A stretch of DNA of 64,000 nt, from positions 13,723 to 77,722 of the IMG/VR virus record IMGVR_UViG_3300034069_001889; one strand, written 5' to 3'. Origin of the DNA: a virus. The notes under the pieces were generated by a model. The model had not been told where the DNA came from, did not search any database, and worked only from the letters and a program-made list of their open reading frames with translations. Shown one piece after another: positions 4,802-56,199 of this stretch. Position 1 is the stretch's first letter, and the number at the start of each line of letters is the position of its first letter. The position numbers and the translations under genes are program-made.

Positions 4802-5068
4802 CTACCTAACAAACGTTTTATGAGCCTCTCTCAGCTCAGCAAGGCTAGCTTGCGCGCCGCCTGGCTTTGCAACATCACTCTTGAGCCGTTTGAGGGCACT
4901 CAGTGGTTTCTTACCCATCTTATCAAACAACTCGCCGCCTAAGCGTGTTGCTTCAGCGTGGCCGGCGCTTCCGCGCGCAAATCCAGCCCGGGTGGCGACA
5001 CCCCCGGCCGAACGGGCACCCATCCATTTTGCCGATACGGCAGTTTTTTCAAATCCGGCTGCAAACAC
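4802..5068 (-). CDS. Small basic Gly/Ala-rich protein with MFxxGFxKxA leader (MFAAGFEKTA)
   Basis: GTG start with GGAGG RBS; N-terminal motif shared with seven other ORFs. Confidence 0.8.
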   Translation of the reverse strand: MFAAGFEKTAVSAKWMGARSAGGVATRAGFARGSAGHAEATRLGGELFDKMGKKPLSALKRLKSDVAKPGGAQASLAELREAHKTFVR

Positions 5069-5101
5069 TGGGAAACCTCCAAAAACTCAATTTTAGTACA
5101 T

Positions 5102-6121
5102 CTAAAGTAATTTCGACTCCTCTTTCTTTTTATACTTCCGCTCGTGCTCGTTGATCATAATGAGCTTCGTTTGCCCCCGTCCCGGCCCGCACGGCTGCCA
5201 CCTGAGGTGAGTCCGCACGGTCGTGCCATCCACGCTATATTCCCGGTCTTTGCCGTAGTTCCAACTCACGTACCGGATCAGGTGACGCGTGTTGTTGAGA
5301 TCAAACCCATTCTTTCGCGCGTCTTTTTGCTCCCGGGCCGTTTGCTGATGCACGGGTTTCATGTGGGTCACGTCGGGATTGAGCGAGTGGAGATACATGG
5401 CGGCGTTGAGGATTGTACGCCACATAGGTTCTGTAAGCCTTCCTTCATCGGGCAACGGACGGCGGCCCAAATCAAATCCAGCCGTTCGAGAAAAATCGAT
5501 TTTATCCAGACCGGCACTTAAGCGCGTAGCAAAGTTGATTGGGGCGATGACAGAGCTTAGGTCGCCGAAGAGAGCCCCTTGAAGACCGGAGATTGGGATC
5601 GCGGCGGCTCTGAAAACAAGGTCGGCGGATTGCAAATTTTCGGAATCATTCGGCCGCGGCTTCAAAATACTGACGTACGCCCCGGTAATGGCTTCTCCGT
5701 CAACATCGGCCACAACCCCTGGCTTCCAAGCGAAGTACGCGTAAAATGGTTTGTCGGGCAACAGTTCAGGCCTAATTTCGACATCCATGCGACTTAAGGC
5801 ATTCATGAATTTGGTGTTGAACACGTAAATTAAATTATTGGAGTGACGTTCGCACGCCTCAACAATAACCGCGGACCGGCAAACGTTTGAGTCGTGAACC
5901 ATGAGACTGAAAATAGTTCGCTCTTGCGGATCTTTTAAACTGTTGCGCTCCCGATCCATAATTGGCTCGCATGCTTCAGCGTCGGCTCGTCCCTCGCGAT
6001 AAGCTTCTGTGCCTTCAAACATGGCACGTCCAATTTTGGCGAACAGCTTCGATGTGACGTTTTCGTGGTGAACGCTTTTACGGATACCCTGGTAATACTC
6101 TGGGAAAAAATGCAGTTTCAT
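5102..6121 (-). CDS. Hypothetical protein (339 aa)
   Basis: Long ORF; C-terminal V-R-x-H-x-R-W-Q-P-C-G...K-L-I-x-I segment of a kind common in phage hypothetical proteins. Confidence 0.8.
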   Translation of the reverse strand: MKLHFFPEYYQGIRKSVHHENVTSKLFAKIGRAMFEGTEAYREGRADAEACEPIMDRERNSLKDPQERTIFSLMVHDSNVCRSAVIVEACERHSNNLIYVFNTKFMNALSRMDVEIRPELLPDKPFYAYFAWKPGVVADVDGEAITGAYVSILKPRPNDSENLQSADLVFRAAAIPISGLQGALFGDLSSVIAPINFATRLSAGLDKIDFSRTAGFDLGRRPLPDEGRLTEPMWRTILNAAMYLHSLNPDVTHMKPVHQQTAREQKDARKNGFDLNNTRHLIRYVSWNYGKDREYSVDGTTVRTHLRWQPCGPGRGQTKLIMINEHERKYKKKEESKLL

Positions 6122-6170
6122 GATGATGGATCCCCTTCCTTTAGAGGACCCATACCACGAAGTCTAAAGA

Positions 6171-7067: not shown

Positions 7068-7126
7068 TAGATGAAAGCTTTACATAAGTTGCACGCCGTG
7101 TCGAGAGGCGCGCCAGAGCAGATGCG

Positions 7127-7378
7127 TTAACGCTTCTTCTTGGTCTTCTTTTTCTTTTTTCGACGTCGCACCAGATTCACATACGTCCGAACGATCGGCG
7201 CTTGCGCGGTTCCAGCGATGATACCGGGGCCGATGCTGCCGATGAATGGCCTGGGCACCTGGGGCGTACGTTCGGGTTTTTCAGCACCGTCCGAGGGCGC
7301 CGGGGTTGCGGGCGTGGCCGAAGAAGGGCCCGGAGCACTCAAGGCGTCTGCGGTTTTTTCAAAACCCCTCACAAACAT
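7127..7378 (-). CDS. Small protein with MFVRGFEKTA leader, Pro-rich middle and poly-Lys/Arg C-terminus
   Basis: Leader motif; ends RRRKKKKKTKKKR; 3-nt gap to the upstream family member. Confidence 0.8.
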   Translation of the reverse strand: MFVRGFEKTADALSAPGPSSATPATPAPSDGAEKPERTPQVPRPFIGSIGPGIIAGTAQAPIVRTYVNLVRRRKKKKKTKKKR

Positions 7379-7381
7379 TGT

Positions 7382-7594
7382 TTACGCCCGGCTTTTCTTT
7401 TTACGGTCTGGATGAGTCATCTGCGCGTACGCGTTCACACCAGCCCCCGTGGCGGCCGCCCCGCCGATGTAGCGCATGTCGTTGCGGTCGAAGTGATGGC
7501 CGACGGCGCCGAGGGTGCGACGAGCAATGCCACCTTCGCGGATCTGATCACGAATAAAACCAGCGGCAGTTTTTTCAAAGCCTTGAGAAAACAT
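7382..7594 (-). CDS. Small protein with MFSQGFEKTA leader
   Basis: Leader motif; Gly/Ala segment and basic tail; 3-nt gaps on both sides. Confidence 0.8.
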   Translation of the reverse strand: MFSQGFEKTAAGFIRDQIREGGIARRTLGAVGHHFDRNDMRYIGGAAATGAGVNAYAQMTHPDRKKKSRA

Positions 7595-7597
7595 CGG

Positions 7598-7963
7598 CTA
7601 TTTCTCTTTCTTGGAATGGTCGTGGTGGTAACAGGTTACCGGTGGCCACTGACTTTTCTTAGTTGTCTTCATTCTCTTCATAGCCTCTTGATAGCGCTGA
7701 TCGTATTTGTCTCGCCACCAGGCCGAAATGTGCTTCTGAGCGTGTTTATGCCCCTCAACGAGGCCCCGCTTGTCTTCGATGCCTTTATGCCAATCTGCGG
7801 TATCCGCCCTCGTTACCGGCAACCCGTCTTTTTCAGCCCCTAAATGAAAAGTATCGAGCTCGTAATCGAAAGCTTCCCTGGCTTCTCGCTTCTTTTGCTC
7901 GTCTTTTTCTTTTAAGTTGAAGGGCCAAAACGCGGCCGTCTTGTTAAACCCAGCCGTGAACAC
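7598..7963 (-). CDS. Small charged protein with MFTAGFNKTA leader
   Basis: GTG start 3 nt after the stop of the 685-aa gene; leader motif. Confidence 0.8.
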   Translation of the reverse strand: MFTAGFNKTAAFWPFNLKEKDEQKKREAREAFDYELDTFHLGAEKDGLPVTRADTADWHKGIEDKRGLVEGHKHAQKHISAWWRDKYDQRYQEAMKRMKTTKKSQWPPVTCYHHDHSKKEK

Positions 7964-7966
7964 GGA

Positions 7967-10024
7967 CTACCCCATCTTCGTGGTCGGCTTTTTCATCGAC
8001 CCTTCAATTTTCTTGAGCCCGCCGATCACCTCAAGAATTTTCGTCATGGCGCCGGCGGTGGCCGCCTGATTGATCTGTTTGAGGCCGAGTCTTGAGCTCA
8101 GCGTGAGTTCCGCCAGGAAGTCGGCGGCCTTGTCGAGCACCGGTACGTAGGACACGAACCGGGCCAAGTTGTCCGGATTGAGGAACTTCAACGCGAGGAG
8201 CGTATCGACCGTCGCCGTATCTTCAATCTCTGCGGCTTCTTTAATCAAAGTCTTGCGGAGCACTTCGCATGCCTTGGCAATTTTTACATGCGCCTCTTTC
8301 ACGCGCTCTTTCGTTCGTTCCGACGACTCAAGTTTGCTGGTGCCGTGAACCGAGCATTTACCGCGGCGCTTGGCCCGCTCCATGACTTTGGCAATTTTTT
8401 CATGGTCCGCGCCAAGGTTGTGAAGGAGGAGTTTTGTTTCGCGCGGGCTACACGCAAGCTTGGGCAGCCCGGCCCCCGAGAACTCATACACCGTTCCCGT
8501 AAACCGGACGTTGACGGGATCGACGTCCATACGCTGCATGGCGGTCTTTTCCATCCACTCGGTCGAGGTTGAGCAAACGTCCGACATGGCTTCGGTGGGG
8601 ATCCAGAGCATCTTGGACGGAATAATGAAGTAGTCTTTCCGCGGCGTCGTGAAGCCCAGCGATTCGAGCGATTTTTTGTCACGGAAGTGTTCGGACACGT
8701 AGCCGTGTTCGCCCTCGCGGCCAAAACTGCTGCCGTAGCCGCGACGCACCTGAAAGCTACGTCCGTGGTCATCGGTCACAGACAGGAGGTCAAAGTTTTC
8801 GATGCTCTTGATCACGACCGGGATCGTGGCGATCGCTTTGTTTTCAGCGCCGACGTAGATAAATGTTCCACGCTGACCTACGGCCGGGTTGCTCGGGCGC
8901 AGAATGCGCTTCAAGCGGCTCGACTGGGGCGCCGGGATGCCGGCCACGTCTTTCTGGTAAGAACTCTGAACTTCGGACAGAACAACTTTCCCGCTGATGC
9001 GGTTGCCACTAAAGTCAACGACGTCGGGAATGACGGCGGCCTCAAACTGAGAACCGGTGCGACTCTGAACCGTGTAGCACCCAAACGTGTCGACACTCAC
9101 CGCAGACTTTTCTTCGCGGTCAAAAAGCCAAACGTTGCCGCTGGTGACCGGCTTGACGACGAGGAACTTTTCGCCAACGCGGTCAATCTCACCCATCGCG
9201 TCTTTTGGTCTGTCGATGATCTTGGCCAGGTATTCTTCGCAACCTTGGCGGTTCAGGCGAAGTTGGTCTTGAAGATCATACGTCTTTTCGCCCATCGTCA
9301 GGAGCGAGTATTTGTCGTTACTCTCCCTCTGGATGTCGACCGCGGCCGCGGGAATGAGCTTTCGTACTTCGGCCGCGTAATCTTTTTGGTTTCGCTTGCC
9401 CTGCTTGGCCGCGAGCTTTTGGATAATTTCCTTGTGGCCGTGGCGCGCGAATTTTTGGAGAAGCATGGGCTCTTGCCGCAGCGTGTCCTTGAATTTCTCC
9501 AAATCCTCGGCGCTCATGGTGTCGGCGATTTGGTCGAGCATGTTGTATCCGGCGGACGCGTAGGCGTAGCGGTGACCCTGGGGGGCGTAGGTGCTCCCCC
9601 ACATGGCTTGATCGCTAAAGAATTGGCCGGGTTGATCCGCGGGCCGGGGGTCGAGCCCGTCGGAGAGCGAGCTCACGAAGAAAAGCTCTTTGAACGTGTC
9701 GAGCGTCAGGGGGTGGACGGCCTGCGTGTCTTTTTCCATCCACACGTCGAGCGGGTGCATTTGGAATTTTTCGATGACGAGCGGCACGAAGCACGATTTG
9801 CCGACGTCCGGCGACACGACGTGGACGGCTCCGATGGCAGTTCCGGTCTGGTCGTCTTTTTTCTTGAATTCGACCGTCAGCGGCAATTTAGAGATGTCTG
9901 GGAACTGTTCGCGCATAAGCGTCGTGATGACCTCGGCCCACTTCTCGACATTCTCTGGCAATTTCGTTCGCTGAACGTTCGGAAGCTGAGGCTCCACGGC
10001 AAACAGGTTCTCAAGACCAGCCAT
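7967..10024 (-). CDS. Large hypothetical protein (685 aa), probably virion-associated; multiple K-x-A motifs
   Basis: GGAG RBS; heads the run with three leader-bearing genes; contains KLAA, EKTAM, EKIAK, KIAK, KEAA. Confidence 0.85.
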   Translation of the reverse strand: MAGLENLFAVEPQLPNVQRTKLPENVEKWAEVITTLMREQFPDISKLPLTVEFKKKDDQTGTAIGAVHVVSPDVGKSCFVPLVIEKFQMHPLDVWMEKDTQAVHPLTLDTFKELFFVSSLSDGLDPRPADQPGQFFSDQAMWGSTYAPQGHRYAYASAGYNMLDQIADTMSAEDLEKFKDTLRQEPMLLQKFARHGHKEIIQKLAAKQGKRNQKDYAAEVRKLIPAAAVDIQRESNDKYSLLTMGEKTYDLQDQLRLNRQGCEEYLAKIIDRPKDAMGEIDRVGEKFLVVKPVTSGNVWLFDREEKSAVSVDTFGCYTVQSRTGSQFEAAVIPDVVDFSGNRISGKVVLSEVQSSYQKDVAGIPAPQSSRLKRILRPSNPAVGQRGTFIYVGAENKAIATIPVVIKSIENFDLLSVTDDHGRSFQVRRGYGSSFGREGEHGYVSEHFRDKKSLESLGFTTPRKDYFIIPSKMLWIPTEAMSDVCSTSTEWMEKTAMQRMDVDPVNVRFTGTVYEFSGAGLPKLACSPRETKLLLHNLGADHEKIAKVMERAKRRGKCSVHGTSKLESSERTKERVKEAHVKIAKACEVLRKTLIKEAAEIEDTATVDTLLALKFLNPDNLARFVSYVPVLDKAADFLAELTLSSRLGLKQINQAATAGAMTKILEVIGGLKKIEGSMKKPTTKMG

Positions 10025-10098
10025 TAAGTTGACTCCTTAAAAGTAGCGTAGACGTCGTTATTTTACCACGATGAGCCAGGTGGCCCATATCAAAGTGT

Positions 10099-10695: not shown

Positions 10696-10697
10696 GA

Positions 10698-11801: not shown

Positions 11802-11843
11802 TGCCAAAGGCTAGCATGTGGAGAAAAATTTTTACAGATATTC

Positions 11844-11853
11844 GATATAAGCT
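11844..11853 (+). promoter_or_regulatory. Candidate promoter motif GATATAAGCT upstream of ssb
   Basis: One of four G-R-TATA-D-G-Y-T motifs heading plus-strand units; followed by a 9-bp palindrome TTTGAGGAG/CTCCTCAAA (11855-11877). Confidence 0.45.
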
Positions 11854-11891
11854 ATTTGAGGAGGTTTTCTCCTCAAAACACAGGAGGACAC

Positions 11892-12320
11892 ATGTCAGGA
11901 GTAAACAAGGTCATTCTCGTCGGGCGCCTCGGGGCTGACCCCGAAGTGAAGCAAGTGCGGGACTCGCAGATGGCGCAGCTCAGCCTGGCAACCAGCGAAA
12001 AATACACCACGAAGGACGGGCAGAAACAGGAAAAGACCGAATGGCACCGCATCGTGGTCTGGGGCAAACAGGCCGAAGTGATTGGTAAGTACGCGACAAA
12101 GGGCAGCATGCTTTTCGTCGAAGGCAAGCTGCAGACCCGTTCGTGGGAAGACCAGCAGGGCCAGAAACGCTACACGACCGAAGTTCAATGTTCGGGCTTT
12201 CAATTCCTGTCGTCCAACAAAGAGGGCGGGGGCGGCCAGTCGAACAATTCCAGGTCCAACGTCGACCACGACTTTGGAAATTCACCCAACTTTAGCGCAG
12301 ACGAAGAGATTCCGTTCTAG
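11892..12320 (+). CDS. ssb: Single-stranded DNA-binding protein, bacterial type
   Basis: [18 protein letters not shown]...[11 protein letters not shown]...[10 protein letters not shown]; acidic C-terminal DEEIPF; AGGAGG RBS at 11882. Confidence 0.97.
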
Positions 12321-13127: not shown

Positions 13128-13535
13128 ATGCTACAAAGTACCCAGGTCCTCAAACTCAAGAATGCCGTTCGGTCGACGCTTGGTTCGATGGCACTGAACG
13201 ATTTGCAACAAGTTGGCGTGCTCGACGACGTGTTGCTGCTTTTAAAAAAGCTAGAGCCGCAGGCGGGCGTCAAATCGACGCTGACTTCGTTGGGCGTAGA
13301 CCCGAGCGACAAACAAGAACAACCTGCCGAGAGCATTGCCGCGAGCACGGCGGGGAACATCAAGACATTACGCAAAAGATCTCCTAAGCGCAGCTACTCC
13401 GAAAAAGTCCGCAAGGAATTTGCGAGACTCTTGGCGGAAGAATCAAAATCCGTCCCTTCCGCCGCCCGTAAGCTCGGCATCAATGTTGCCACGGCGTACG
13501 GCTGGAAAAGCTTGATCTCAAAAACTGCCAATTAG
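13128..13535 (+). CDS. Helix-turn-helix DNA-binding protein (~135 aa)
   Basis: C-terminal YSEKVRKEFARLL...SVPSAARKLGINVATAYGWK (HTH_Tnp_1-like); AAAGGA RBS before ATG 13128; no transposase catalytic domain. Confidence 0.7.
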   Translation: MLQSTQVLKLKNAVRSTLGSMALNDLQQVGVLDDVLLLLKKLEPQAGVKSTLTSLGVDPSDKQEQPAESIAASTAGNIKTLRKRSPKRSYSEKVRKEFARLLAEESKSVPSAARKLGINVATAYGWKSLISKTAN

Positions 13536-13780
13536 TACTGAATGATCTGGGGCGGGGGAGGTGGCGGCTCCTTCGGCCCGGAGAATGCCTTGGCGGCAAG
13601 CACGGTCCCGCCGAGTGCCATGAACGGGTGCTTCTTGATCAAGCCCGACACCATGCCCGGTGATTTTTTTGCAACGTCCGCGCCTGCGGCCGCGGCGGGC
13701 GCGCCTTTAAACACCTGACCCGCCTTAGCCGTCATGTCGCCGAAGAACCCTGCCGTCTTCTCAAATCCACTACTAAACAT
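13532..13780 (-). CDS. Small protein with MFSSGFEKTA leader, amphipathic Gly/Ala core and poly-Pro tail
   Basis: ATG overlaps the RNAP stop (TGATG); leader motif. Confidence 0.8.
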   Translation of the reverse strand: MFSSGFEKTAGFFGDMTAKAGQVFKGAPAAAAGADVAKKSPGMVSGLIKKHPFMALGGTVLAAKAFSGPKEPPPPPPQIIQY

Positions 13781-16700
13781 CAGTATGTCTCTTTCTTTTT
13801 ACCGAACGACGCCCCGTGAGCGAACGCAGGGATCGGGTGATTGTCGGCCACGTCCGACGACCAGTTCTGCGCCGCGCCCTCGGTCAACGTATTCTTAATT
13901 TTACGATACCCGAGCTGAGCCATCCAATTTTTCTTAGTAAACGGAATCTCGGTGATCGCCTTGATCATTGGCTTGTGAAGCAACGGATCTTTGAGCACGT
14001 CGATCTCATTACGGAAGCCCGCCGCCTTGAGGTAAGGGATGTCCTTGTCCTGGATCTCGTGAAGGGCCGGCAGCTTGCCCACGTTGTTCTGAAGGTGATA
14101 ACCCGCAGAATCTTCGACGTGGACCTTTTTAGCGCGCTGCTCGTTGTAGTGCTTGGCCGTCGTGTAGGGCATGACGTCCCCCGGAAGCACGTTCATGTGC
14201 TTTGGAGCGTGGAGCACCTGCGTGTTGTTCGCAACGGAGCGAACCACGGTCTCAAAGACACGGCGGTGCATGTTCACGCCCTGGCCCGCGTACGTGTTTT
14301 GAAGCTCGTCCACGATGTAGTTCTGGGCGGCGTCGAGACCTTTGTACCTCGCCAAGTTCTGGGGCTTGGTGACCCCTTCGGTCATGTTGTCGCCAACTTT
14401 GACCCGGTCGCCGACTCTCACGTTCAGTTTCAGATCCGGGTGAGTGGTGTAGCGCTTGTCACCGACCTCGATAACGTGTCCGCCGGCGGGCGCTTTCGTA
14501 ATCTTGGACACCTTGCCCTCGTTGGTGGCCATCGTGGCTTCCCGTGCCAGGTGGGCCGGCTGATTGACGAGCTGGTTGACGCGGTTAAATCCGGACACCG
14601 TTGCCGCGCCGGCCACGCCGCCCGTGTGGAAGGTTCGCATCGTGAACTGGGTGACGGGTTCAGACATTGCCTGCCCCATCTTGGCCCCGATGTTGTCCCC
14701 GAGCGAAGGTTTAGCGCCGTGTTCGTCGATACCAAAACAACGGGCGCACGTGCCTTTGGGAGCAATGCATTCGAGCGGGGTGCGCACGTCAACGGTCTTA
14801 GCCCCCTTCTTACGCAGGCTCGACAGCACCTGTGGAGTCACCAGCGTGTTGCGAGCGTAGCCGTGCTGATCCCGCGACAGGTACCGATCATAGATATCTT
14901 GAGTTCGGTCGAGAGGGAGCTTCAGACCTTTTTTCGTTCCGCAATCATCAACGGTGATGATGTTGTCGACCGTTGCTGCCAAGATGTCTTTATTGAGCGC
15001 GCCGGGTTTCGACGTTTGGAGCGTCCGGTCCATCATGCCCTTGCGAACACCGTAAGACGCGATGAAATAGTCGGAGGTAGTCAGACCCTCGGCGTAGCTG
15101 TTCTTCACGGGGACGGGCACCTTGCGGTTTTTGGAATCCACGAGGATCCCGGGTGCCGTCACCATTTGCCGCAGCTGCAAATCGTTACCCTTGGCGCCGG
15201 ATTCCACCATGCGGTAAAAACTCGACCCAGAGTCCTTCAATTGCTTCTTGCCTGAAGTCTCGTAAGCCTGCGTGGCGGCCTTTTCGTAAATTTCGGAGAT
15301 CTTGGCGTCAAGTCCCACTCCGGCTTTTTCTTTCTTACGAAGGGCCGCGACCGCGCGATCGGCCATTGCGAACAAACGGTCCCGCTCTCTATTATCGACC
15401 TGCAAATCTTTGATGCTGGCCGAAAACCCGGTTTGGTACGAGTGCTGGTCGCCCAGGTTCTTGAGCTCCTGGACGAGGGTCGCAAATTTGTTCGGCTCTT
15501 TTTTAGCGAGGTCTTTGAAGAACTCACGCGCGCCGGCCTTGTTGAGCTGCTTGGTCACGTGAAAGCCGCTCGGCAAGAGCTTGTTGATCCGCGCGCGTCC
15601 CTCGGGGTTTTGAGAAAGAAGGTAGAGCCCGATGGCCGCTTCCTGCGAAGGAACGAGCATGAGTTCGCCGGTGCCGGGGTTCCAGAGGTTGTTCGACGGC
15701 AGCATCTTGTGCGATTCGGTCAGCGCTTCCTGGGAGATTGGCACGTGAATGTTGACCGCATCCCCGTCGATGTCGGCGTTGAAGCCTTTGAAGACGAGCG
15801 GAGGCACCTTGATCGCTAAACCGTCCGTGAGTTGTGGCTTGAAGGCCATGATCGAGAATTTGTGGAGCGACGGCGCCCGGTTCATCATGACCGTGCGTTT
15901 TTTCATCACGGCCTCAAGCTGCTGCCGGGCCCGGACGGTTTTCTTCTCCACCTCTTGGCGCGCGTCTACGGGGGCGTAGCCGGCTTTAACAAACTCGCTG
16001 ACGATGAATGGCTTGAAGATGCTCCACGCCATTTTTTCCGGGATGCCGATTTCATCCACGTGAAGATCCGGTCCGTTGGTGATCACGCCGCGGCCCACGA
16101 GATCTTGTTTCTTCGTGATTAATTTGTTGAGGAAGAAACCCTGCTTGGGCTGATTGTTCGAGATTTGCTGCAAGAAGCCTTCGGCCGGCTGGTCCTTACC
16201 CCGGGGGTAAAGAGCCTCCAGTCCCGAGATGACGCGCGTTTGTTTGTAAGTCTCCTGGCGGAGCTGGGCCTTTTCGCTATCGTCGAGGTATTTCATGACC
16301 GGGTACTTGTGCGCCTCGGCAAGGATACCAAGACCTTGGTAAAGGTAGTTGGACGGCGATACCGACCGCCCGATTCCAGGCAACTCCTCGATCGGGCGAA
16401 ACTTTGGCGGCACGACGGGCACGGTCGAGCGCGTGTAGGCGTCGGTGGGCTTGAGGTTAAGCTCTTTCAGTGCCGCGAGGTAGCGCACCTTACGGTTGAG
16501 CGAATCGATCTCCGTAGCTTTCGTGTCGGGCTTCGCGGCCCTCGACTTAAGCAAAGCGCTCGCATTTTTCATTTCCTGCTCGACGTCGATGCCTTTAAGC
16601 AAATGCGAAATGGCTTCCCCACCCGTGACGTACCCTGGCGACGTTTTATCGGTGATCTTACCGTCCTTGCCTAGAAACCGCTTTCCCGCGATCAAGTCGT

Positions 16701-19700
16701 TGTATTGAGGTTTGCTCAAGCCCGTGAGGTTGCGGATGGCGCCTTCGAAAATCGGGTTCGGGAGCCGTTCGGGAAGGTCAATGTGCGTGTACCCGCCGCC
16801 ATCGAGGCCACCCGTCTTGGCGCGGTCAAAGAACCCGCCTTTAATTTCTTGCATGTCTTTGCCCCGAACAAACTGCCAGTTATCGACGGCACCGTTTGAG
16901 AGTTTCAAGGTCTCTTTGTCGGTGAGGGGCGAGATTCCAAAATTCGAACCATTCTTCGTGACGTTGATGCCGGCGCCTTTGAGAAGGCCCAAAAACTTGT
17001 CGAACGCGAAGGTGGTCTTCGGGGGCGGCAGAGGCTTTCCGGTCGAAAGGTGATCCCAGAGCTCATCGTTGCGCTCGGATTTCATGTGCGCATCGTGCAG
17101 GTTCTTTTTGGCACCGTGGGAGAGCATCGAGTAAAAAGCGAGCGCGTCGACGCTCTTCGTTCCGGACTCACCACGACGGAGTGGCTGCATGTTGCGATCG
17201 TAACCAGAACCGGGCGTCCGCGCCGAGAAGCCGGACTTCCCCGTCTTGGCCAGACGGATGATGTGCGGAATCCCGACGCTCACTTCGCCAAGCTTGTTCC
17301 CTTTCGGGTCGTAGAGTGTCTCGGTGTCGGTCAGGCCCGCTTTTTTCAGATCAGCGATAATCTTGGTGTTGGTCGGCTCAGAGTCGAAATTTTTTACAAC
17401 GTAAGGTTTTCCCGTCTTATCCGCAATCTTCCCGGCGGCGGATTCATAGATCTGCCCAAGATTGATTCGGCTGATGACGCCGTGGGGGTTCAAGAACATA
17501 TCGGGCACCTGTCCGTCGGCGGTGCGGGGCGCTTCGCTATCGGGTATGACCTTCGAAATTACGCCCTTGTTCCCGTGTACGCCCGAAAGCTTATCAGACT
17601 CGCGCGCGGGCTCAATGGTCTTGACGTAGACGTGGTGGCCGTCCGAGTTTTTATTCACGTCCGTCACGATACCGGGATATTCGCCCGTGTACTTCACGGC
17701 CGCGTCAGCCCAAGGCACGGCCAGCGCCTTGTTGAGTTTTTGGAGCGTCTTGTTGGCAAGCGAGCCCGTGTTGTTGGCAAGGCCCGCGATCAAAATGTCG
17801 CCGGGCTTCACGCGGGCACCTTTTTTGATGACGCCGTTTTCGCCCAGCTGATTGCGCGCGTCCAAGGGAATCTTGCGGCCGTGGTAGGACTCCCACTTAC
17901 TGCCGTTAACAATAAACCGTCCGGCTTCGGGCTGAAAAGAGTGTTTGATCACTTGCTCGGCCGAAAGTTTCTTCGACGCCGACTCCGTGATGACGATCCC
18001 GTCTTCAAAGGTGTGGCCCGGGATTGGGAGGTAGGCGACCTTCAAATTTGTGCCCAGCGCCAAGGATCCGCCCTTGGTGAAGTTTGAATCCGCAATCAAC
18101 TGGCCGGCCTTGACCCGGTCGCCCACTTTCACGGTGGGCGTGTGGTGGATATACGTTTTTTGGTTGAGCGGGAAGTTGTTGTAGAGCGGAATCTTCTCGG
18201 AATCGATCTGGATGTAATCGGGACCGATGGCCTTGACCGTGCCGTTCTTACTCGCCGCTACGCTGAACTGCTTTCCGATCGCCTCCTGGAAGGTCTGCCC
18301 TTTGACGAGCTCCGTTTGCACGTGAGGCGCTTCGCGGTTGATCAGCGGCAGCGCCTGGCCGAGCTGTTTTGCCGCCATGGCCGTACGCGTGCCCTGGTTG
18401 TTCTTGAGGAACGGCACGAGATTGGAGGAGTGCGAGAAGAGGCCGATCGGGGTGGCCAGTACGCCGTCGACCTTGCCGCTGGGGACGACCATCACCTTGC
18501 CGCGATGCTGAACTTTGACACCGCTCGGGTTTTTGAACTTACCGTCGACGATCTCGTCAGGAAACGCCACTGCGCGGCCAAACATTTGGAGCGGAGTCAA
18601 ACGCTCGTGCTTTTTGGTTTTGGTGTTGTAAACCGACGCGTTGATTTCGCGCCCATTTTTCTGCACGCCCGCGGCCATGTGCAAAACCAAGCCCGTGGTG
18701 TCAGCCTCTGGCGTGTGCACGGGATCGACGAACCCAATGTGGGACGGGTGAACCTCGCGCAAATTGACCGGTACGGCGTGTTCTTGCGTAATACCACCCG
18801 TGCCCATGACCGTGAGCTTTGAAGCCCCGGCCAGCATGTTGATAGGATTGTATTGCTCGGGCGGGTTGACGCGGTCATCACCCTTAAAGAAAGCTTCGAC
18901 GGGCGACGTGAGCTTTCGAAAGTCGATCATCTTTTTGAGGTTTGCCCGACGTCCTAAATGCTTACCGATCAAATTTTTGAGCTGCTGCGTTTCTTTCTTG
19001 CTCGTAAGCTTGTCGTGCAGCATGTCTTCAACGGACCGCACTTCTTTAAACACTAGATTCTCGACGTCGTCAGGGTCGGCTTTGTGGTTGTGAACCTGGA
19101 GGATCTTTTTAGCTGTGTCCAGTACCAAGCCTTTGGAAAGCTCCGAGTGACTTGTCCCGAGGGTGATGCCCGTAATGCCCGGATCGACCTTCATCTTTGG
19201 CGCCGTTTGCTTGACCGCGTCCATTGCCGTCTGGCGGTTGTCCGTCGTCACGTTCGCAATCGACTTCGCAAGCTTGTGGTAGCCCGCGTCACGGTCATAC
19301 TTGCGGTTGGCCAGGAAAACATCTTCACCAATGGTTTTGATGATTTCTTGATCGCTGGCCCCGAGGGAGTGAAGTAGGGGCAGAATCCCGACCTTGGTTT
19401 TGTCGCCCATGACGACGTCGTAGCGATTTGTCTTGGAATCAAAATTGATGTCGAAGTTTTTCTGGCGCTCGCCCTGGGTTACGACCATGCCTTTGTAGGT
19501 ATCGCCCTTATCCGAGGCCGTGACGTACGTCCCGGGCTTGCGGATCATTTGGTTTGCAACCTGGTATTCGTTACCTGAGACGATATATGAGTGCCTAGGG
19601 GTCAATCTCGGGACCGTGGCAATCCGGATCTTTTCGATACGGTCGACGACCTTACCGTTTTCATCTTTGAGGACGAGCGAGGCCATAACGGGCACGCCCC

Positions 19701-19890
19701 AAGTGCCCCCGGCGAGCTTCACCTTTTTTTGGTCGGCGTAGTCATCTACCGCGGTGGTCTTGTCATCGAGCCAGATTTTAGGCGCGTCAATTCGGTGCCC
19801 GTTTTTCTCGACGGGAAAGAGCCTCTTGTACGCATCGACCACGGTAGAAGAGAGCTTCTGGAATTCGTCGGCACCTGAGAATGTACGCAT
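13780..19890 (-). CDS. rpoBC: Fused beta-beta' multi-subunit DNA-directed RNA polymerase (2036 aa)
   Basis: beta motifs DKLSGVHGNKGV and LNPHGVISRINLGQ; beta' motifs NRAPSLHKFSIMAF, NADIDGD, SGAKG, GLTTSDYF..YGVRKG, DDCGT, CIAPKGTCARC and GQAMSEPVTQFTMRTFHTGG; junction near 16950 with no stop. Confidence 0.95.
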   Translation of the reverse strand: MRTFSGADEFQKLSSTVVDAYKRLFPVEKNGHRIDAPKIWLDDKTTAVDDYADQKKVKLAGGTWGVPVMASLVLKDENGKVVDRIEKIRIATVPRLTPRHSYIVSGNEYQVANQMIRKPGTYVTASDKGDTYKGMVVTQGERQKNFDINFDSKTNRYDVVMGDKTKVGILPLLHSLGASDQEIIKTIGEDVFLANRKYDRDAGYHKLAKSIANVTTDNRQTAMDAVKQTAPKMKVDPGITGITLGTSHSELSKGLVLDTAKKILQVHNHKADPDDVENLVFKEVRSVEDMLHDKLTSKKETQQLKNLIGKHLGRRANLKKMIDFRKLTSPVEAFFKGDDRVNPPEQYNPINMLAGASKLTVMGTGGITQEHAVPVNLREVHPSHIGFVDPVHTPEADTTGLVLHMAAGVQKNGREINASVYNTKTKKHERLTPLQMFGRAVAFPDEIVDGKFKNPSGVKVQHRGKVMVVPSGKVDGVLATPIGLFSHSSNLVPFLKNNQGTRTAMAAKQLGQALPLINREAPHVQTELVKGQTFQEAIGKQFSVAASKNGTVKAIGPDYIQIDSEKIPLYNNFPLNQKTYIHHTPTVKVGDRVKAGQLIADSNFTKGGSLALGTNLKVAYLPIPGHTFEDGIVITESASKKLSAEQVIKHSFQPEAGRFIVNGSKWESYHGRKIPLDARNQLGENGVIKKGARVKPGDILIAGLANNTGSLANKTLQKLNKALAVPWADAAVKYTGEYPGIVTDVNKNSDGHHVYVKTIEPARESDKLSGVHGNKGVISKVIPDSEAPRTADGQVPDMFLNPHGVISRINLGQIYESAAGKIADKTGKPYVVKNFDSEPTNTKIIADLKKAGLTDTETLYDPKGNKLGEVSVGIPHIIRLAKTGKSGFSARTPGSGYDRNMQPLRRGESGTKSVDALAFYSMLSHGAKKNLHDAHMKSERNDELWDHLSTGKPLPPPKTTFAFDKFLGLLKGAGINVTKNGSNFGISPLTDKETLKLSNGAVDNWQFVRGKDMQEIKGGFFDRAKTGGLDGGGYTHIDLPERLPNPIFEGAIRNLTGLSKPQYNDLIAGKRFLGKDGKITDKTSPGYVTGGEAISHLLKGIDVEQEMKNASALLKSRAAKPDTKATEIDSLNRKVRYLAALKELNLKPTDAYTRSTVPVVPPKFRPIEELPGIGRSVSPSNYLYQGLGILAEAHKYPVMKYLDDSEKAQLRQETYKQTRVISGLEALYPRGKDQPAEGFLQQISNNQPKQGFFLNKLITKKQDLVGRGVITNGPDLHVDEIGIPEKMAWSIFKPFIVSEFVKAGYAPVDARQEVEKKTVRARQQLEAVMKKRTVMMNRAPSLHKFSIMAFKPQLTDGLAIKVPPLVFKGFNADIDGDAVNIHVPISQEALTESHKMLPSNNLWNPGTGELMLVPSQEAAIGLYLLSQNPEGRARINKLLPSGFHVTKQLNKAGAREFFKDLAKKEPNKFATLVQELKNLGDQHSYQTGFSASIKDLQVDNRERDRLFAMADRAVAALRKKEKAGVGLDAKISEIYEKAATQAYETSGKKQLKDSGSSFYRMVESGAKGNDLQLRQMVTAPGILVDSKNRKVPVPVKNSYAEGLTTSDYFIASYGVRKGMMDRTLQTSKPGALNKDILAATVDNIITVDDCGTKKGLKLPLDRTQDIYDRYLSRDQHGYARNTLVTPQVLSSLRKKGAKTVDVRTPLECIAPKGTCARCFGIDEHGAKPSLGDNIGAKMGQAMSEPVTQFTMRTFHTGGVAGAATVSGFNRVNQLVNQPAHLAREATMATNEGKVSKITKAPAGGHVIEVGDKRYTTHPDLKLNVRVGDRVKVGDNMTEGVTKPQNLARYKGLDAAQNYIVDELQNTYAGQGVNMHRRVFETVVRSVANNTQVLHAPKHMNVLPGDVMPYTTAKHYNEQRAKKVHVEDSAGYHLQNNVGKLPALHEIQDKDIPYLKAAGFRNEIDVLKDPLLHKPMIKAITEIPFTKKNWMAQLGYRKIKNTLTEGAAQNWSSDVADNHPIPAFAHGASFGKKKETY

Positions 19891-20648: not shown

Positions 20649-20679
20649 AAAAAGAGGGGCGGTCACCGCCTCTTTTTTT
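20649..20679. terminator. Bidirectional intrinsic terminator
   Basis: AAAAAGAG-GGGCGG-tca-CCGCC-TCTTTTTT between convergent genes. Confidence 0.75.
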
Positions 20680-21022
20680 ACATCGATGGATATTGCGATT
20701 GCGGAAAGTCGGACTGGCCGTATTGATCGCTATCGTATGCGTTCTGACTTCGCTCTTGCAGCTTGCGGTGTACTTTTTTGACACCTTTGTAATAAAGCCC
20801 GGCGGCTACGGCCGATGGTAGACTTTGCGCCGCGGCCCCTCGCAACGCGTTCCGTCCCTCACCGGTCGACAGCAGTTGTTTGTATCGACCACGGTATTGC
20901 CCGAGCTCGCCTAAAGCTTTACGTGCCCCGCCGAACGTCAGGGCACTGCCCACGGTCTCGCCGGCCGCAGCTTTGAGACCATCACGCAATCCAGCAACTT
21001 TCACAAAACCTACAACGAACAT
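20678..21022 (-). CDS. Small basic Gly/Ala-rich protein with MFVVGFVKVA leader
   Basis: Leader motif variant; last gene of the portal-containing run. Confidence 0.8.
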   Translation of the reverse strand: MFVVGFVKVAGLRDGLKAAAGETVGSALTFGGARKALGELGQYRGRYKQLLSTGEGRNALRGAAAQSLPSAVAAGLYYKGVKKVHRKLQERSQNAYDSDQYGQSDFPQSQYPSM

Positions 21023-23559: not shown

Positions 23560-24381
23560 TTAAGGCACATCCCCAAAAGGTGAAAATAGTGCCTTCAGGG
23601 TCGCTGGCCACGTCGATAGATCAAGCCAGCGCGTTTTAGGCACATCAATGGTCTCATTATAGCCTATGGCCGGGATGGCGAGAATATATTGGTGACCTTG
23701 GAGGAGTGGCAAAGCAACTCTTCCGTAAACATCCGAATAAACCTCGATAATACTATCGCCGACGCCCGATCCATCGGGGTAGGCCAGCTTGGCGCGTGTA
23801 GAGACACCTTCGATGGGCCGACCATTGGGCGTGATAAACCGTGCCTCCACCACGCACAAATCGGCGCCAATGATCTGGGGCGAAAAAGAAGCCGACGGTA
23901 AAGACTCAACGCCCGAAGTGACGGAAGTGACTCGGTAGGTGTCGAGTATGTCGCCCGTCTCGTCACTGAAATTGATGGTGTCCTCTTGAGGGTCTAGCGT
24001 TCCGGACACCGACCCAACTAAGCTAAACTCCAAGCGTGGCACCACGATTTTTGGCGCCAATCCTAAATTAGCGAGCCCCGGTGACTTGAAAAATTTGATG
24101 CGCCCTCGTCCACCGGTCAGTCGCAGCGCCACCGATGCGCCGTCCGTTGATGCGGAGGCCTTTAGCCCGCGCACTTGCGCGTTGATGTCGTCTGCGAAAT
24201 CTTCGGCCGACGTGCCCGTGAAGGTAACGGTCTGAATGTCGGGGGACACGACGGCCAAGCGAAGGGCGTCGCCCACCTGCAGGGCATTTGGGAAATCAAC
24301 GACGAGACCCGGCACCGACCGGTACACGTTGTAGGTGTCCACGTCCGAGTCGTCGTAAGGGAGCCAAGATAAGTTGATCAC
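23560..24381 (-). CDS. Virion structural-type protein (273 aa), beta-rich
   Basis: N-terminal YNVYRS; C-terminal domain similar to that of 32450..33373. Confidence 0.7.
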   Translation of the reverse strand: MINLSWLPYDDSDVDTYNVYRSVPGLVVDFPNALQVGDALRLAVVSPDIQTVTFTGTSAEDFADDINAQVRGLKASASTDGASVALRLTGGRGRIKFFKSPGLANLGLAPKIVVPRLEFSLVGSVSGTLDPQEDTINFSDETGDILDTYRVTSVTSGVESLPSASFSPQIIGADLCVVEARFITPNGRPIEGVSTRAKLAYPDGSGVGDSIIEVYSDVYGRVALPLLQGHQYILAIPAIGYNETIDVPKTRWLDLSTWPATLKALFSPFGDVP

Positions 24382-24539
24382 CGCGCTAGCCCTTTACCAA
24401 TGCGGGTGTTTCTAAGACCCACCCTTGAAATGCCTTTGATCGGGGGAACCTTGTTGAGCGTACGATTCATTTCATAGAACCACGCCGGTGCCGCCACCTT
24501 CATGAAACCTTTTGAGAACTTATGATCTGATGAGTTCAC
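24378..24539 (-). CDS. 53-aa basic protein with FSKGFMKVA leader motif (below ORF-track cut-off)
   Basis: Reads MNSSDHKFSKGFMKVAAPAWFYEMNRTLNKVPPIKGISRVGLRNTRIGKGLAR; GTG at 24539 with GGGGG upstream; its TGA overlaps the next gene's GTG (GTGA). Confidence 0.7.
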   Translation of the reverse strand: MNSSDHKFSKGFMKVAAPAWFYEMNRTLNKVPPIKGISRVGLRNTRIGKGLAR

Positions 24540-29814: not shown

Positions 29815-30618
29815 CTACCCGTTATTTGCTAGTGCGTCCATGGCATACAAATCGGCCGAAAAGATCTTCAACGCTTGTATAAACGCAAAATCTTCGCGCA
29901 TCTGAATGGTCGTTGCGTAGAGCTTGATGGCGTTGAGCTCAGTCGCAATGGAGGCCGTAACCTCGGGGTCGGTTGCCACACCCGTTTCTTCTCGATTCAT
30001 CGCGGCCAAGTTTGGCTCGGCCATCCGTAAATATTTAGATGGTGTGACCGTGTACATGCCGTCGGTGTGGCAGCACGCGGCAATATACGCTTTGACCTCG
30101 TTTGCAAACTCGTCGGGACGGATCACGTCGAGCATCGCAACCGTCGAGGCACACTCGGGAGGGCTCAGCGGTTCGAGTACGCCAAAATTGGGGATCCGGT
30201 CATTAAACGCGCCTCCGACCTTCTCAAACACGTTCCATTCCCGGTGAACGGTGTCAGAGGTGAGGATGACCCTCAAGGCCAAAATTTTGTTGCGCACCAG
30301 CGGCGGCACGTTCGTATCGAGCAGGCCGGTCGCGTGAAATTTCTCTAGCGCCTGGCCGGCCCGCTCCCCGGTCCAGGCTGAGTATTTCTGATCGAGAGCC
30401 GTAAATAAAGTCTCAGGCTTCCAGGCCAGGGCCGCCGGACCTAGAGATTTGAGTTCTTGAAGTAGGACCAAGGGCGAGGTCAAAGATTCGTAAATGGCCG
30501 GCTGGGCCATTTTTAGGCTGCGAAGGACGGTGCCGTTCACCGAGTTAGAAAAACGCGCGAACGAACCATCTTGGGGCTTACGTGCTTTTTTCTTTTGATC
30601 CTTCGCAGTCTCTTTCAC
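29815..30618 (-). CDS. Hypothetical protein (267 aa)
   Basis: Start overlaps the stop of the 363-aa gene; helical. Confidence 0.75.
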   Translation of the reverse strand: MKETAKDQKKKARKPQDGSFARFSNSVNGTVLRSLKMAQPAIYESLTSPLVLLQELKSLGPAALAWKPETLFTALDQKYSAWTGERAGQALEKFHATGLLDTNVPPLVRNKILALRVILTSDTVHREWNVFEKVGGAFNDRIPNFGVLEPLSPPECASTVAMLDVIRPDEFANEVKAYIAACCHTDGMYTVTPSKYLRMAEPNLAAMNREETGVATDPEVTASIATELNAIKLYATTIQMREDFAFIQALKIFSADLYAMDALANNG

Positions 30619-31706
30619 AACTTCCCTTTGGCGATCTGCGCGATCACCAGTTTGGCATCGAGCGGCAGTGACTCAAAAATGGACTGCCCGTGTTTTTGCA
30701 GCGATCCGGCCAACGTCTCTCCGAAGTAGCTCTTCACCTTATCGTACTTCTCGGAGGCGACTTTGCTCAGTTCAGGGCCGGTCATCGTCAGTCCGGACTG
30801 CTCATCTTCGAACACGAACCCGGCGTTTTTCTCAATCTGGGTATCGTAGGTCGCCTGGTACGGGTCAAGCAGATAGCGGCCGTAGACCTTCGGCATCTCG
30901 TTTTCGCCGTCCCATTTCTCAAGAAGCGCGGCGAACTGATCCGGCGTGGCCTTGTCTTGGACCGACGCAATCTTATTCAGATTGGTCAGGGCCTCCGGGC
31001 GGTGCTGCGCGAATTCACGCCGCAAAGTGAGCTGGCGTTCGACCTGGTCTCCGTAGACCGTCCCGGCCACCTTTCGGAGCTGTAAAAGCTCCCCGTCCGG
31101 CAGAGTCACGCTCAACGCCTCCGCTCGACCTAAGACGTTGGCGGCGTAGTTGTGTCGGTCGGCGGGCTCGAAGTCTTTGAAAAATTCTCCAAAGTACCGG
31201 CTCGCGGTCTTTACGTGGTCTTCACTGAAGAGAGGGTATCGACCCGGGAGAGCGTAAACTCCATCACGCGGCTTGGCCTCAATGGTCCGCGGAGACGCAA
31301 TCTTTTTGTGATCCGCGTCTTCCACGTACAAATTCGAGATCGGTTTTTCACTGGCTCCGAACTGTTCGACCGCTGAATTGGTTTTGAGTCCGAACTCCTG
31401 GCACGCGGCCTTGATGTGGCTCGCCGTGATGCGCGCGGCCTGGTAGGGCAGCTTGTGGGCATTTTTTTCAAAATACGCGGCCGACAACCAAGTGTCCGCC
31501 GGCGTATGGACGGGGAAGCGCCGCAGCCGAGACCCTTCTTTGGTCAGTGCGTGCAGTGCAAAAGACGTGTTCTCAAGTTTTGAAGCCTCTTCCCGGAGGG
31601 CGATCGAAGCTGTTTTCACAAACTCCGGTATTCCTCCGGCGAGTCCCCGCAACTGCGAAAGTCCGAGGTCGTCGTTAAAGTCCAAAGTCTGCGTTGCCAA
31701 GCTCAT
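30615..31706 (-). CDS. Hypothetical protein (~363 aa) punctuated by K-x-A-[S/G] motifs; probable head-internal or scaffold protein
   Basis: ATG 31706 with GGAGGA RBS; KTAS x2, KIAS x2, KVAS, KVAG, KNAG. Function is inferred. Confidence 0.8.
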   Translation of the reverse strand: MSLATQTLDFNDDLGLSQLRGLAGGIPEFVKTASIALREEASKLENTSFALHALTKEGSRLRRFPVHTPADTWLSAAYFEKNAHKLPYQAARITASHIKAACQEFGLKTNSAVEQFGASEKPISNLYVEDADHKKIASPRTIEAKPRDGVYALPGRYPLFSEDHVKTASRYFGEFFKDFEPADRHNYAANVLGRAEALSVTLPDGELLQLRKVAGTVYGDQVERQLTLRREFAQHRPEALTNLNKIASVQDKATPDQFAALLEKWDGENEMPKVYGRYLLDPYQATYDTQIEKNAGFVFEDEQSGLTMTGPELSKVASEKYDKVKSYFGETLAGSLQKHGQSIFESLPLDAKLVIAQIAKGKL

Positions 31707-31725
31707 ATTAATCCTCCACAGGCCA

Positions 31726-31734
31726 ATCATACCA
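31726..31734 (-). promoter_or_regulatory. Extended -10 promoter candidate TGGTATGAT
   Basis: About 20 nt upstream of the ATG at 31706. Confidence 0.55.
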
Positions 31735-51830: not shown

Positions 51831-51833
51831 TAA

Positions 51834-53177: not shown

Positions 53178-53180
53178 CTG

Positions 53181-53996: not shown

Positions 53997-54006
53997 GGTC
54001 TTTATT

Positions 54007-55653
54007 TTATCCTTCCAGTACGAACATGTCGATAAGAGAACCTTCTGAGCGGACTTCAACGGCAACACGGTCGCCCGTCGACCATCCTTCGTCTAGACGT
54101 AGGTAAGTGTAGTCGTCGAGCTCGGCTTGGTTCAACTGATCTTGAGACACTTCGGTATTGGGATTGTAGTCGACGTTGGGCGTCACGTTAAAGGACGTGT
54201 GGAGGCCCATGGCCGGTTGACCGTTGGGGTAGCCCGGTCGCGTGTTCCCGGTCGGACCGTCATCTAAGAGAGTCAGCTTTTCCCGAAAAACCCCGACGAG
54301 CACTTGGAAGAGGTAGCTGCGAGATCTGGGTTGAAGCGTAGAGAGAAAGGTGCGGACGTTCGAAAGCTTGATGTCGGGGCTGATGAAGGTCGCCACGTCG
54401 ATCTGGGGCAAATAGGCATTGGCTTCAAGGAGGCGCAGCGCCTTGGTCTCGTCCGTCTCCGGCGAGTTCCCTCGGCTCGCTTTCTCGGTCAGAAAAGGCT
54501 GAACGCCGTAGCGACCGACTTCCTTGTTTACGAAACCTGGATAATTCACTTTATCAAAAACGCGGATGCCGCTGACCAGAGGTTCGAACCGTGTCACGCG
54601 TTGGCCAAAGCCAACGATCGACGTCAGATCGTCGGGGATGGCGAAGGTTTCCGTCGACTGGTCGTCGTAAGTCAGGGTGATTGAGGTCTCGTTCAAGCCC
54701 GTCACCGCCCCGTTGGCGGACGCCGTGGGTAGCCCGAAGAGCAAGTATAACGACCGCTTAATGTTTTCAGGCCTAGGCCCGGTCCAGAAGGCGTACCACA
54801 GACCTTTCACGGCTTTGAGGTAGCTCGCCGTGTTGTTGTCGTAGATGTCGAGGAGGCAGCCGTAGTTGTTGTACGGCGTCTCGTTGTTTACGAACGTGTC
54901 CGGGGCCCACATGAGCGCCGGCGGCTCTTTGGCAAAAGAAATGACGCCCGAGTTGAACTCGATGTCGTAGTCCACGCCCGCTTGCAGATTGACCGAGATA
55001 TTCTCCGGCGTCACCGCGTCCTGAAGTTGCGGAATTGCGGTGATGGTTTTGTCGGCCAAGGCGAAATCGTACGGAAAACGGGGGAACGCGCGCGGAAGAT
55101 CTTGAACCGGATCAAAGCCAAGAATGATCTCGGACGCGTCCTTTGAGGAATCTGACGTGGGCAAGAACTCAATGGAGCTGGCGTCGCCGGTGGTTGGCGA
55201 CCGTAATTCCAGCAATTGATTCGACTGGACCGCGAACGCGATCGTATCTCCAAAGATGGAATTGATACGCTGAACGATTTCGCTGAGTTTTGTTTTGGAC
55301 GCGTCCACGCCGCGCAGATCCAGTTCGCGGGCGGGGCCATCATCGACCCGGAGCGCAATCAGGTATCGATTTTCTAGGTTGATGCCAAGACTTAAGTCCT
55401 GTCCCGACCTGTAAACGGCCGCCTGATTGATCGCGGTGGTGTCGTCAAAGACGAAGCTCTGCCACCGACGGATATTGTAGAGCGGCAGGTAGTCGATGTT
55501 GACCGCCATCTTCCGCTCGAACATCTGCATGTAGACGTCGCCGTAAGTCTGCTCGTACGCCTTCCACGTCTCGGCAAAACGCAGGCGGTCAGCTTCGGGA
55601 AGAAGCCCCCACACGTCGTCGAGATAGTTAAAGATGTACTCAGAATTACTCAC
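54007..55653 (-). CDS. Baseplate wedge protein (548 aa)
   Basis: Located just after the J-like gene; YLKAVKGLWYAFWTGPRPENIKRSLYLLFGLP resembles wedge (gpI-like) proteins. Confidence 0.55.
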   Translation of the reverse strand: MSNSEYIFNYLDDVWGLLPEADRLRFAETWKAYEQTYGDVYMQMFERKMAVNIDYLPLYNIRRWQSFVFDDTTAINQAAVYRSGQDLSLGINLENRYLIALRVDDGPARELDLRGVDASKTKLSEIVQRINSIFGDTIAFAVQSNQLLELRSPTTGDASSIEFLPTSDSSKDASEIILGFDPVQDLPRAFPRFPYDFALADKTITAIPQLQDAVTPENISVNLQAGVDYDIEFNSGVISFAKEPPALMWAPDTFVNNETPYNNYGCLLDIYDNNTASYLKAVKGLWYAFWTGPRPENIKRSLYLLFGLPTASANGAVTGLNETSITLTYDDQSTETFAIPDDLTSIVGFGQRVTRFEPLVSGIRVFDKVNYPGFVNKEVGRYGVQPFLTEKASRGNSPETDETKALRLLEANAYLPQIDVATFISPDIKLSNVRTFLSTLQPRSRSYLFQVLVGVFREKLTLLDDGPTGNTRPGYPNGQPAMGLHTSFNVTPNVDYNPNTEVSQDQLNQAELDDYTYLRLDEGWSTGDRVAVEVRSEGSLIDMFVLEG

Positions 55654-55656
55654 AAC

Positions 55657-56199
55657 CTAGTGAACCTTGCTGCCGTAGTAAGTCGCTCCGGCCAGGGCGC
55701 CAAGCGCTCCGACGTTCGTCAAGCTTTTCCGCATGCCGGCCTTATCACCTTCTTTGTGCTCTTTGTACGCGTTGTGAGCGTCGACACCGGCAAGGGCGCC
55801 GAGACCACCGTACTCAAGACCTAAGTGAAGCTTGCGAACGTTTGCCGGATTCTTTAAGCCCTTGAGCGCCGCCTGACCTCCCTCCCGGAGCGTCTCGGCC
55901 ATCCCACTCGCGGTCTTCCCGAGGATGTTGGTGGCCGGAACCGGGCTGCCCATGGCTTTTGAAATGGCTTTTTGATTGTAGCGCGCAATAGCACTATCAA
56001 CGCCGCCCGGCTTTACCGTACCGAGTAGGCGGTCGCGACCCTCGTGCAAAATACGCTTCTTATAATCCGCATCAGTCATGCGGCCGGCCATACCTCGCGC
56101 GGCGGCAGTTGCTTTGCCAATTGATTGAGGCAGGTGTAGCGTCGGCATGGTGTAAGGAACGGGCGCTCTGGCAATTTTAATGAAACCTTGGGTGAACAT
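55657..56199 (-). CDS. Basic Gly/Ala-rich protein (180 aa) with MFTQGFIKIA leader
   Basis: GAGGAG RBS; leader motif; internal LGKTAS; C-terminal glycine zippers. Confidence 0.8.
   Translation of the reverse strand: MFTQGFIKIARAPVPYTMPTLHLPQSIGKATAAARGMAGRMTDADYKKRILHEGRDRLLGTVKPGGVDSAIARYNQKAISKAMGSPVPATNILGKTASGMAETLREGGQAALKGLKNPANVRKLHLGLEYGGLGALAGVDAHNAYKEHKEGDKAGMRKSLTNVGALGALAGATYYGSKVH

Follow-up and report, generated by a model that had tools for sequence, protein, structure and literature searches.

In bacteriophage T4, unrelated proteins enter the prohead core by means of a short N-terminal sequence, which is then cut off at a head-protease motif; capsid protein, core proteins and the protease are trimmed at the same motif (PMC3012670). 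As far as described in that source and in the account of Mullaney & Black 1996 given in PMC10052503, this capsid-targeting sequence (CTS) is carried by IPI-III and Alt and is removed by gp21. In phiKZ and SPN3US, N-terminal propeptides are cut after A-x-E by gp175/gp245, and the virions carry RNA polymerase (RNAP) and ejection proteins (PMC10052503, PMC5694885). With these systems we compare a 64,000-nucleotide stretch of viral DNA (the window), bases 13723-77722 of the IMG/VR phage record IMGVR_UViG_3300034069_001889 (115,893 bp, 55% GC, 74% complete by CheckV), in which a preliminary description had noticed eight small proteins with a common N-terminal leader, F-x-x-G-F-x-K-x-A, proposed to load cargo into the head and to be cut after K-x-A. 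Our analysis makes it probable that this leader is a T4-CTS-like tag, which would load proteins into the head and be removed by the head protease. The proposal is supported by a gp21-fold protease, by the recurrence of K-x-A in head proteins and by the boundary of a tagged DNA ligase, all of them comparative lines of evidence.

The leader resembles the T4 CTS in being an N-terminal peptide of about ten residues on otherwise unrelated, mostly basic proteins, in ending in a predicted head-protease site, the protease itself having the gp21 fold (Z 12.3), and in a cargo set that is hypervariable between relatives. On the other hand, its sequence is unrelated to the CTS, and the site appears to be hydrophobic-x-K-x-A, whereas that of T4 is L/I-x-E. 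The tagged genes number 12-22 per genome, compared with a handful in T4, and lie dispersed over head, tail and RNAP operons. The phage also differs from T4 in its 308-aa capsid protein and its fused beta/beta' RNAP, and the function of its leader is predicted from sequence alone. With phiKZ and SPN3US it shares large size, a multisubunit-type RNAP among the late genes, many head proteins with (here predicted) propeptides at the N-terminus, core proteins that contain several copies of the motif and a protease that carries its own sites. In phiKZ and SPN3US, however, the propeptides are long and mutually unrelated, in contrast to the one compact leader shared here; P1 is Glu there and apparently Ala here, the (S/A/G)-x-E motif having no counterpart and Lys and Ala being invariant; and the genomes here are smaller, at about 116-175 kb. 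What appears to be new relative to these systems is the leader sequence, the predicted specificity for P1 Ala, P3 Lys and a hydrophobic P5, the number of tagged genes and the clade of RNAP-carrying phages that bears them.

A six-frame scan of the window found (M/V)F..GF.K.A at the opening of seven minus-strand open reading frames (ORFs), and in an eighth, which starts at 24539, the tag begins 7 residues inside (Table 1). Since orthologues of this eighth ORF in three relatives are displaced likewise, by 3-7 residues, it is regarded as a real gene. All eight sites lie where the preliminary description had placed them, on the minus strand throughout. The six frames of the whole record contain F..GF.K.[AS] 12 times, where composition predicts 0.17 and 100 shuffles of the record gave a mean of 0.04. 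All 12 matches are on the minus strand and N-terminal, and plus-strand genes have none; the motif therefore stands well above background. Four of these tagged genes lie outside the window, and a thirteenth is truncated by the contig end. Because the record is incomplete, the true number must be greater than 12. The tagged genes occupy at least eight separate places in the genome, and the codons of the tag vary synonymously between them, which bears out the earlier view that conservation is at the protein level. A translation-enhancing 'downstream box' was rejected as an explanation: the codons vary, genomes of 38-56% GC retain the peptide, and its distance from the start can range over 1-7 residues. 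A signal peptide was likewise rejected, as the leader has no hydrophobic core.

The scan of relatives that the preliminary description had proposed gave at least 5 to about 22 tagged ORFs per related contig. In a 175-kb IMG/VR contig whose RNAP is 59% identical (G001), about 22 ORFs are tagged, all on the RNAP strand, and one of them follows immediately on the RNAP stop, an arrangement also seen in the window. Four more IMG/VR contigs, two of them near-identical, gave 11, 11, 12 and 5 matches in a DNA-pattern scan, nearly all on one strand, and a reversed-pattern control gave 0. In the five related contigs nearly all tagged genes share the strand of the structural genes. Variant leaders were found further away, in members with 43-49% protease identity: FW.GFEKRA and MD.NF..GFEK.A, GF.DELEKL[AS] and, in a 187-kb RNAP-bearing phage, A[YF]..LG-hydrophobic-K.A. 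A scan of metagenomes for the exact tag DNA returned only the G001 contig and one 3.7-kb contig as real matches, other single matches being at the estimated chance level, and a literature search for the string GFEKTA found nothing. Two further resemblances were met: an identical stretch in the metagenome contigs L084, L086, L097 and L098, in which MFSNGFEKTAK closes an unrelated longer ORF and is a chance C-terminal resemblance, and a tag-like sequence in the middle of a WYL-domain protein of L073.

A logo over 59 tagged proteins from six genomes reads M-F-[TVLS]-x-G-F-[E]-K-[TVI]-[A/S], and conservation ends there; the same 59 proteins fall into 40 cargo sequence clusters. Between the tagged proteins of this genome, blastp at 1e-3 detected no similarity behind the tag. 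The cargo (n=58) has a median pI of 10.2, exceeds pI 9 in 93% of cases against 27% of the genome's other proteins, and consists of Gly and Ala to 27% against 16%. These results agree with the earlier statement that the proteins behind the tag are unrelated, mostly basic and Gly/Ala-rich. The eight tagged proteins of the window had no family in Pfam and PHROG searches; among relatives, the cargo domains include an ATP-dependent DNA ligase (PF01068, 34 bits) and a SWIM zinc finger, together with a weak ParB-like match. The name 'effector' given to the cargo is too strong for most of these proteins, which look like small basic Gly/Ala-rich internal or ejection proteins. Many cargos have Gly-zipper-like hydrophobic stretches, which would suit a leader that is a protease-removable cap with no addressing role, so that potentially harmful Gly-zipper or basic peptides and enzymes stay inactive before they are in the prohead, their entry depending on other features. 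Two further observations point the same way: internal sites in head proteins share only hydrophobic-x-K-x-A with the leader, and a positional orthologue of a tagged protein in L073 carries M-I-K-E-A at the end of an otherwise unrelated leader of 19 aa. Nevertheless, F-x-x-G is as invariant as the Lys across 40 clusters of unrelated cargo and in genomes with 38-56% GC, a block for which a bare cleavage site has no need, and a prohead-confined protease acts only on proteins that are already inside. We therefore consider such a cap unlikely.

The last five tag residues, Phe-x-Lys-x-Ala, fit a wider motif, hydrophobic-x-K-x-A, which is then usually followed by Ser, Gly or Ala. When sites of the stricter form [FLIVM]-x-K-[TVIS]-A are counted per protein, they cluster in the head module of this genome, where the protease and three of its neighbours exceed expectation, as does a 371-aa protein of the window (Table 1); enrichment in the protease and in four scaffold/core-like proteins is 10-30 fold. 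Apart from a 152-aa ORF, all head-module proteins between the 287-aa protein and the capsid protein, these two included, have their first motif site 16-32 residues from the N-terminus. Most sites of the 371-aa protein persist in orthologues at 40-43% identity. Among 120 capsid homologues, K26 is invariant, T27 is present in 109 and A28 in 117, and F10, N11, F14 and G23 are near-invariant or invariant; the capsid protein of Salmonella phage Arash (gp226, 30% identity) has L-V-K-E-A at the place equivalent to the K26 site. The capsid sequence F-N-x-L-F ... G-x-x-K-T-A looks like a stretched form of the leader F-x-x-G-F-x-K-x-A. We speculate that the leader may mimic the capsid propeptide, in which F10-N-x-L-F14 lies upstream of K26-T-A28. 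None of the 59 closest tags has Ser after the Ala, although Ser is the commonest residue there at internal sites and is present in more distant tags. We infer that hydrophobic-x-K-x-A followed by a small residue is the site recognized and cleaved by the phage's own gp21/assemblin-fold prohead protease. A motif unrelated to head assembly, whether a RiPP-like modification site, a membrane or secretion signal or the remnant of a duplicated family, is very improbable. The similar composition of the cargo across tagged proteins does allow that some are diverged paralogues, but the cargo includes clearly different folds (the ligase, the SWIM finger), the genes stand in at least eight separate places with no common neighbouring enzyme, the leader does not have the hydrophobic core typical of a signal peptide, and the motif is otherwise found only in head proteins and the head protease.

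The head protease is encoded in the head module to the left of the window. Its N-terminal domain matches annotated prohead proteases of actinophages. A PDB sequence-profile search with the protease domain gave only noise, so a fold search was needed. An AlphaFold2 model of residues 1-250 (alignment of 39 sequences, pLDDT 74) had T4 gp21 (5jbl) as its best PDB match at a Foldseek probability of 0.99, and VIA-align superposed the model on 5jbl with Z 12.3 and an rmsd of 2.6 Å over 145 of 165 residues. These results indicate that the genome encodes a head protease of the gp21/assemblin fold. In the 39 protease homologues, L28-x-K30-x-A32 is invariant and the candidate catalytic residues His101/102 and Ser153 are conserved. 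The motif occurs at the protease's own N-terminus, in a linker and near the C-terminus, and the self-processing head proteases of T4 and SPN3US likewise carry their own sites (PMC10052503). In the fold search, herpesvirus proteases come next after gp21 (Z 6-7.8), and they share the superfold. The maturation and release sites of herpesvirus assemblin are Ala|Ser, and the predicted specificity here, with a small P1 Ala and Ser, Gly or Ala next at internal sites, is closer to these than to x-x-Glu. Lys at P3 and a hydrophobic P5 are peculiar to this clade, and to our knowledge herpesviruses have no shared leader on multiple cargos. The clade comprises 401 capsid homologues and 166 protease-domain homologues on contigs of up to 185 kb; no Pfam domain was found among the capsid and protease homologues listed, save intein insertions in some proteases. 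Protease homologues of about 1000 aa (P0059, P0082, P0114, P0118, P0119) carry intein/homing-endonuclease domains (PF14528, PF13403, PF05203), which indicates that inteins have invaded the protease gene in some phages.

For the tagged ligase of G001, 230 homologues were found, and the boundary of its leader was analysed among those listed. A leader of 8-15 aa ending in hydrophobic-x-K-x-[AS] is present in 44 of 53 close homologues, and the Ala of these 44 leaders precedes the catalytic Lys by 26-31 residues (mode 27). The remaining nine are leaderless, and as six of them begin 26-28 residues before the catalytic Lys, their Met sits at the position of the leader Ala. Of 39 LigD-like homologues that are more distant, 13 begin at the conserved core and at least 17 have a leader ending in K-x-A just before it. 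In an AlphaFold2 model of the tagged ligase the core has a pLDDT of about 90 and the tag block 57. The boundary results indicate that the leader is an optional add-on that ends at K-x-A. They also bear on the idea of an uncleaved docking peptide with the scaffold or the interior of the HK97-fold shell as its partner, the K-x-A-S repeats of core proteins being multivalent anchors. Encapsulin cargo-loading peptides are usually C-terminal, remain uncleaved and bind the shell protein directly; the leader is similar to them as a short conserved terminal peptide that would direct unrelated cargo into an HK97-fold shell, and differs in being N-terminal. Docking would accord with a short terminal peptide on unrelated cargo, with the different post-Ala preference of tags and internal sites and with the detection of multi-site proteins in Arash virions. 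It is nonetheless improbable, given that leaderless ligases begin at the leader boundary, that the capsid and protease motifs stand 26-32 aa from the N-terminus, as classical maturation cuts do, and that a gp21-fold protease is present. The tagged ligase is not closely related to the untagged one of L074. In P0136, P0167 and P0169, homologues of the tagged ligase are fused to a NUDIX hydrolase domain (PF00293) behind a like leader.

According to the T4-like reading, leader-bearing proteins made late would enter the assembling prohead, where the prohead protease would remove the leader at or next to K-x-A. The mature small, very basic Gly/Ala-rich proteins, joined by a DNA ligase in relatives, would remain in the head with the DNA and would probably be ejected into the host together with the virion RNAP. 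Several points weigh against this course of events: Ser is absent after Ala in the 59 closest tags though commonest at internal sites, the conserved F-x-x-G has no assigned partner, several tagged genes stand among tail and baseplate genes, and the RNAP, presumably packaged, bears no tag, so that the tag cannot be the sole route into the head. If the reading is true, an N-terminal F..GF.K.A and its lineage variants would list the proteins packed into heads and probably injected, 12-22 per genome, and the fast turnover of cargo between relatives would be the expected signature of host-interaction and counter-defence proteins. Substrate recognition by P1 Ala, P3 Lys and a hydrophobic P5 would be new to the gp21/assemblin superfamily, and a second, unrelated short packaging tag would be available for loading foreign proteins into capsids. 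We put forward only tentatively, as a doubtful extension, that gp21/assemblin-fold proteases with the K-x-A code form a new specificity class in a large uncultured clade of RNAP phages (about 400 capsid homologues), that the leader is a compacted capsid propeptide using the same receptor, and that it forms a portable tag listing all injected proteins, with a packaged DNA ligase and NUDIX-ligase fusions among them.

Among cultured phages, the closest are Salmonella phage Arash and three Vibrio phages, with 30-37% identity in terminase, capsid protein and protease. In purified Arash virions, the motif-rich proteins gp220, gp221, gp222, gp223 and gp242, the RNAP subunits and a sigma factor were detected, the RNAP beta/beta' being the most abundant among 116 virion proteins (PMC10585845); this detection is at the protein level, and the 'coverage' column of Table 2 of that study cannot reveal N-terminal processing. 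The head module of Arash repeats the pattern seen here, the motif sites numbering 9 in gp220, 8 in gp223, 6 in gp225, 8 in gp242 and 6 in the protease gp222. Arash has no compact F..GF tag, its GF.K.A matches being at the control level, and no homologue of the tagged ligase. Orthology of the 371-aa protein (P0001) to gp242 was considered and is unsupported by BLASTP (E 0.13). The RNAP, one 2036-aa chain here, is split in the 187-kb relative (Table 1) and consists of separate beta and beta' proteins in Arash (gp206/gp216). Small leader-bearing genes and the ligase adjoin the RNAP in several lineages.

Table 1. Coordinates and properties of the features discussed (window positions unless genome or a contig is given; motif counts as observed vs expected, with [FLIVM]-x-K-[TVIS]-A unless another pattern is written)
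Feature	Length (aa)	Coordinates	Strand	Start	Leader or motif count	Remarks
Tagged gene	88	4802..5068	-	GTG, 5068	(M)FAAGFEKTA	Basic cargo, pI 11.0; no Pfam/PHROG family
Tagged gene	83	7127..7378	-	ATG, 7378	MFVRGFEKTA	Third of tandem trio; Pro-rich linker, Lys/Arg tail
Tagged gene	70	7382..7594	-	ATG, 7594	MFSQGFEKTA	
Tagged gene	121	7598..7963	-	GTG, 7963	(M)FTAGFNKTA	Charged helical cargo; no Pfam match
Tagged gene	82	13532..13780	-	ATG, 13780	MFSSGFEKTA	Start overlaps RNAP stop (ATGA); related cargo in three relatives
Tagged gene	114	20678..21022	-	ATG, 21022	MFVVGFVKVA	Orthologues in three relatives
Tagged gene	53	24378..24539	-	GTG, 24539	FSKGFMKVA	Leader displaced by 7 residues
Tagged gene	180	55657..56199	-	ATG, 56199	MFTQGFIKIA	Directly after gp6-like baseplate wedge gene; orthologue in G001
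Thirteenth tagged gene		genome 1-32	-		MFKAGFEKVA...	Truncated by contig end
Head protease	608	genome 6219-8045			5 vs 0.32	Left of window, head module; weak PHROG 'head maturation protease' match (N-domain)
Neighbour of protease	202				3 vs 0.07	
Neighbour of protease	295				2 vs 0.15	
Neighbour of protease	287				3 vs 0.17	
Major capsid protein	308	genome 2437-3363				Left of window; phrog_2522
P0001	371	30615..31730	-		4 vs 0.15; K-x-A-[S/G] 7 vs 0.45	Candidate multiply cut head-core protein
Structural protein	685	7967..10024	-		hydrophobic-x-K-x-A 7 vs 1.2	Just upstream of tagged trio
Fused beta/beta' RNAP	2036	13780..19890	-		no motif excess	Late strand; PHROG match; no tag
RNAP of 187-kb relative, split	1481 + 560	L099 4906-9351, 13089-14771				
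Large terminase		2754-4469				PHROG match
Lys/Pro/Ala-rich protein	217	2040-2693	-			Directly after terminase
Shadow ORF	213	7202-7843	+			Spans tagged trio
WYL-domain ORF		L073 17512-18006				Tag-like sequence mid-protein

Within the window, tagged genes overlap the RNAP stop and directly follow the gp6-like wedge gene, so the coupling to RNAP and baseplate genes described earlier is upheld. The 'portal run' label is not: the 685-aa protein beside the tagged trio has no Pfam or PHROG match and only a weak, though colinear, similarity to the Arash virion protein gp218. Its first hydrophobic-x-K-x-A site is at residues 26-30. Other PHROG matches in the window are a baseplate hub/lysozyme-like protein, the gp6-like baseplate wedge, tail fibre proteins and a sigma-like protein. 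The genes of the tandem trio (7127-7963) are separated by 3 nt, and longest-ORF calling picks the plus-strand shadow ORF across them and misses all three. The 217-aa protein next to the terminase gene, for which no family was found, has a Lys/Pro/Ala-rich N-terminal tail like that of histone H1.

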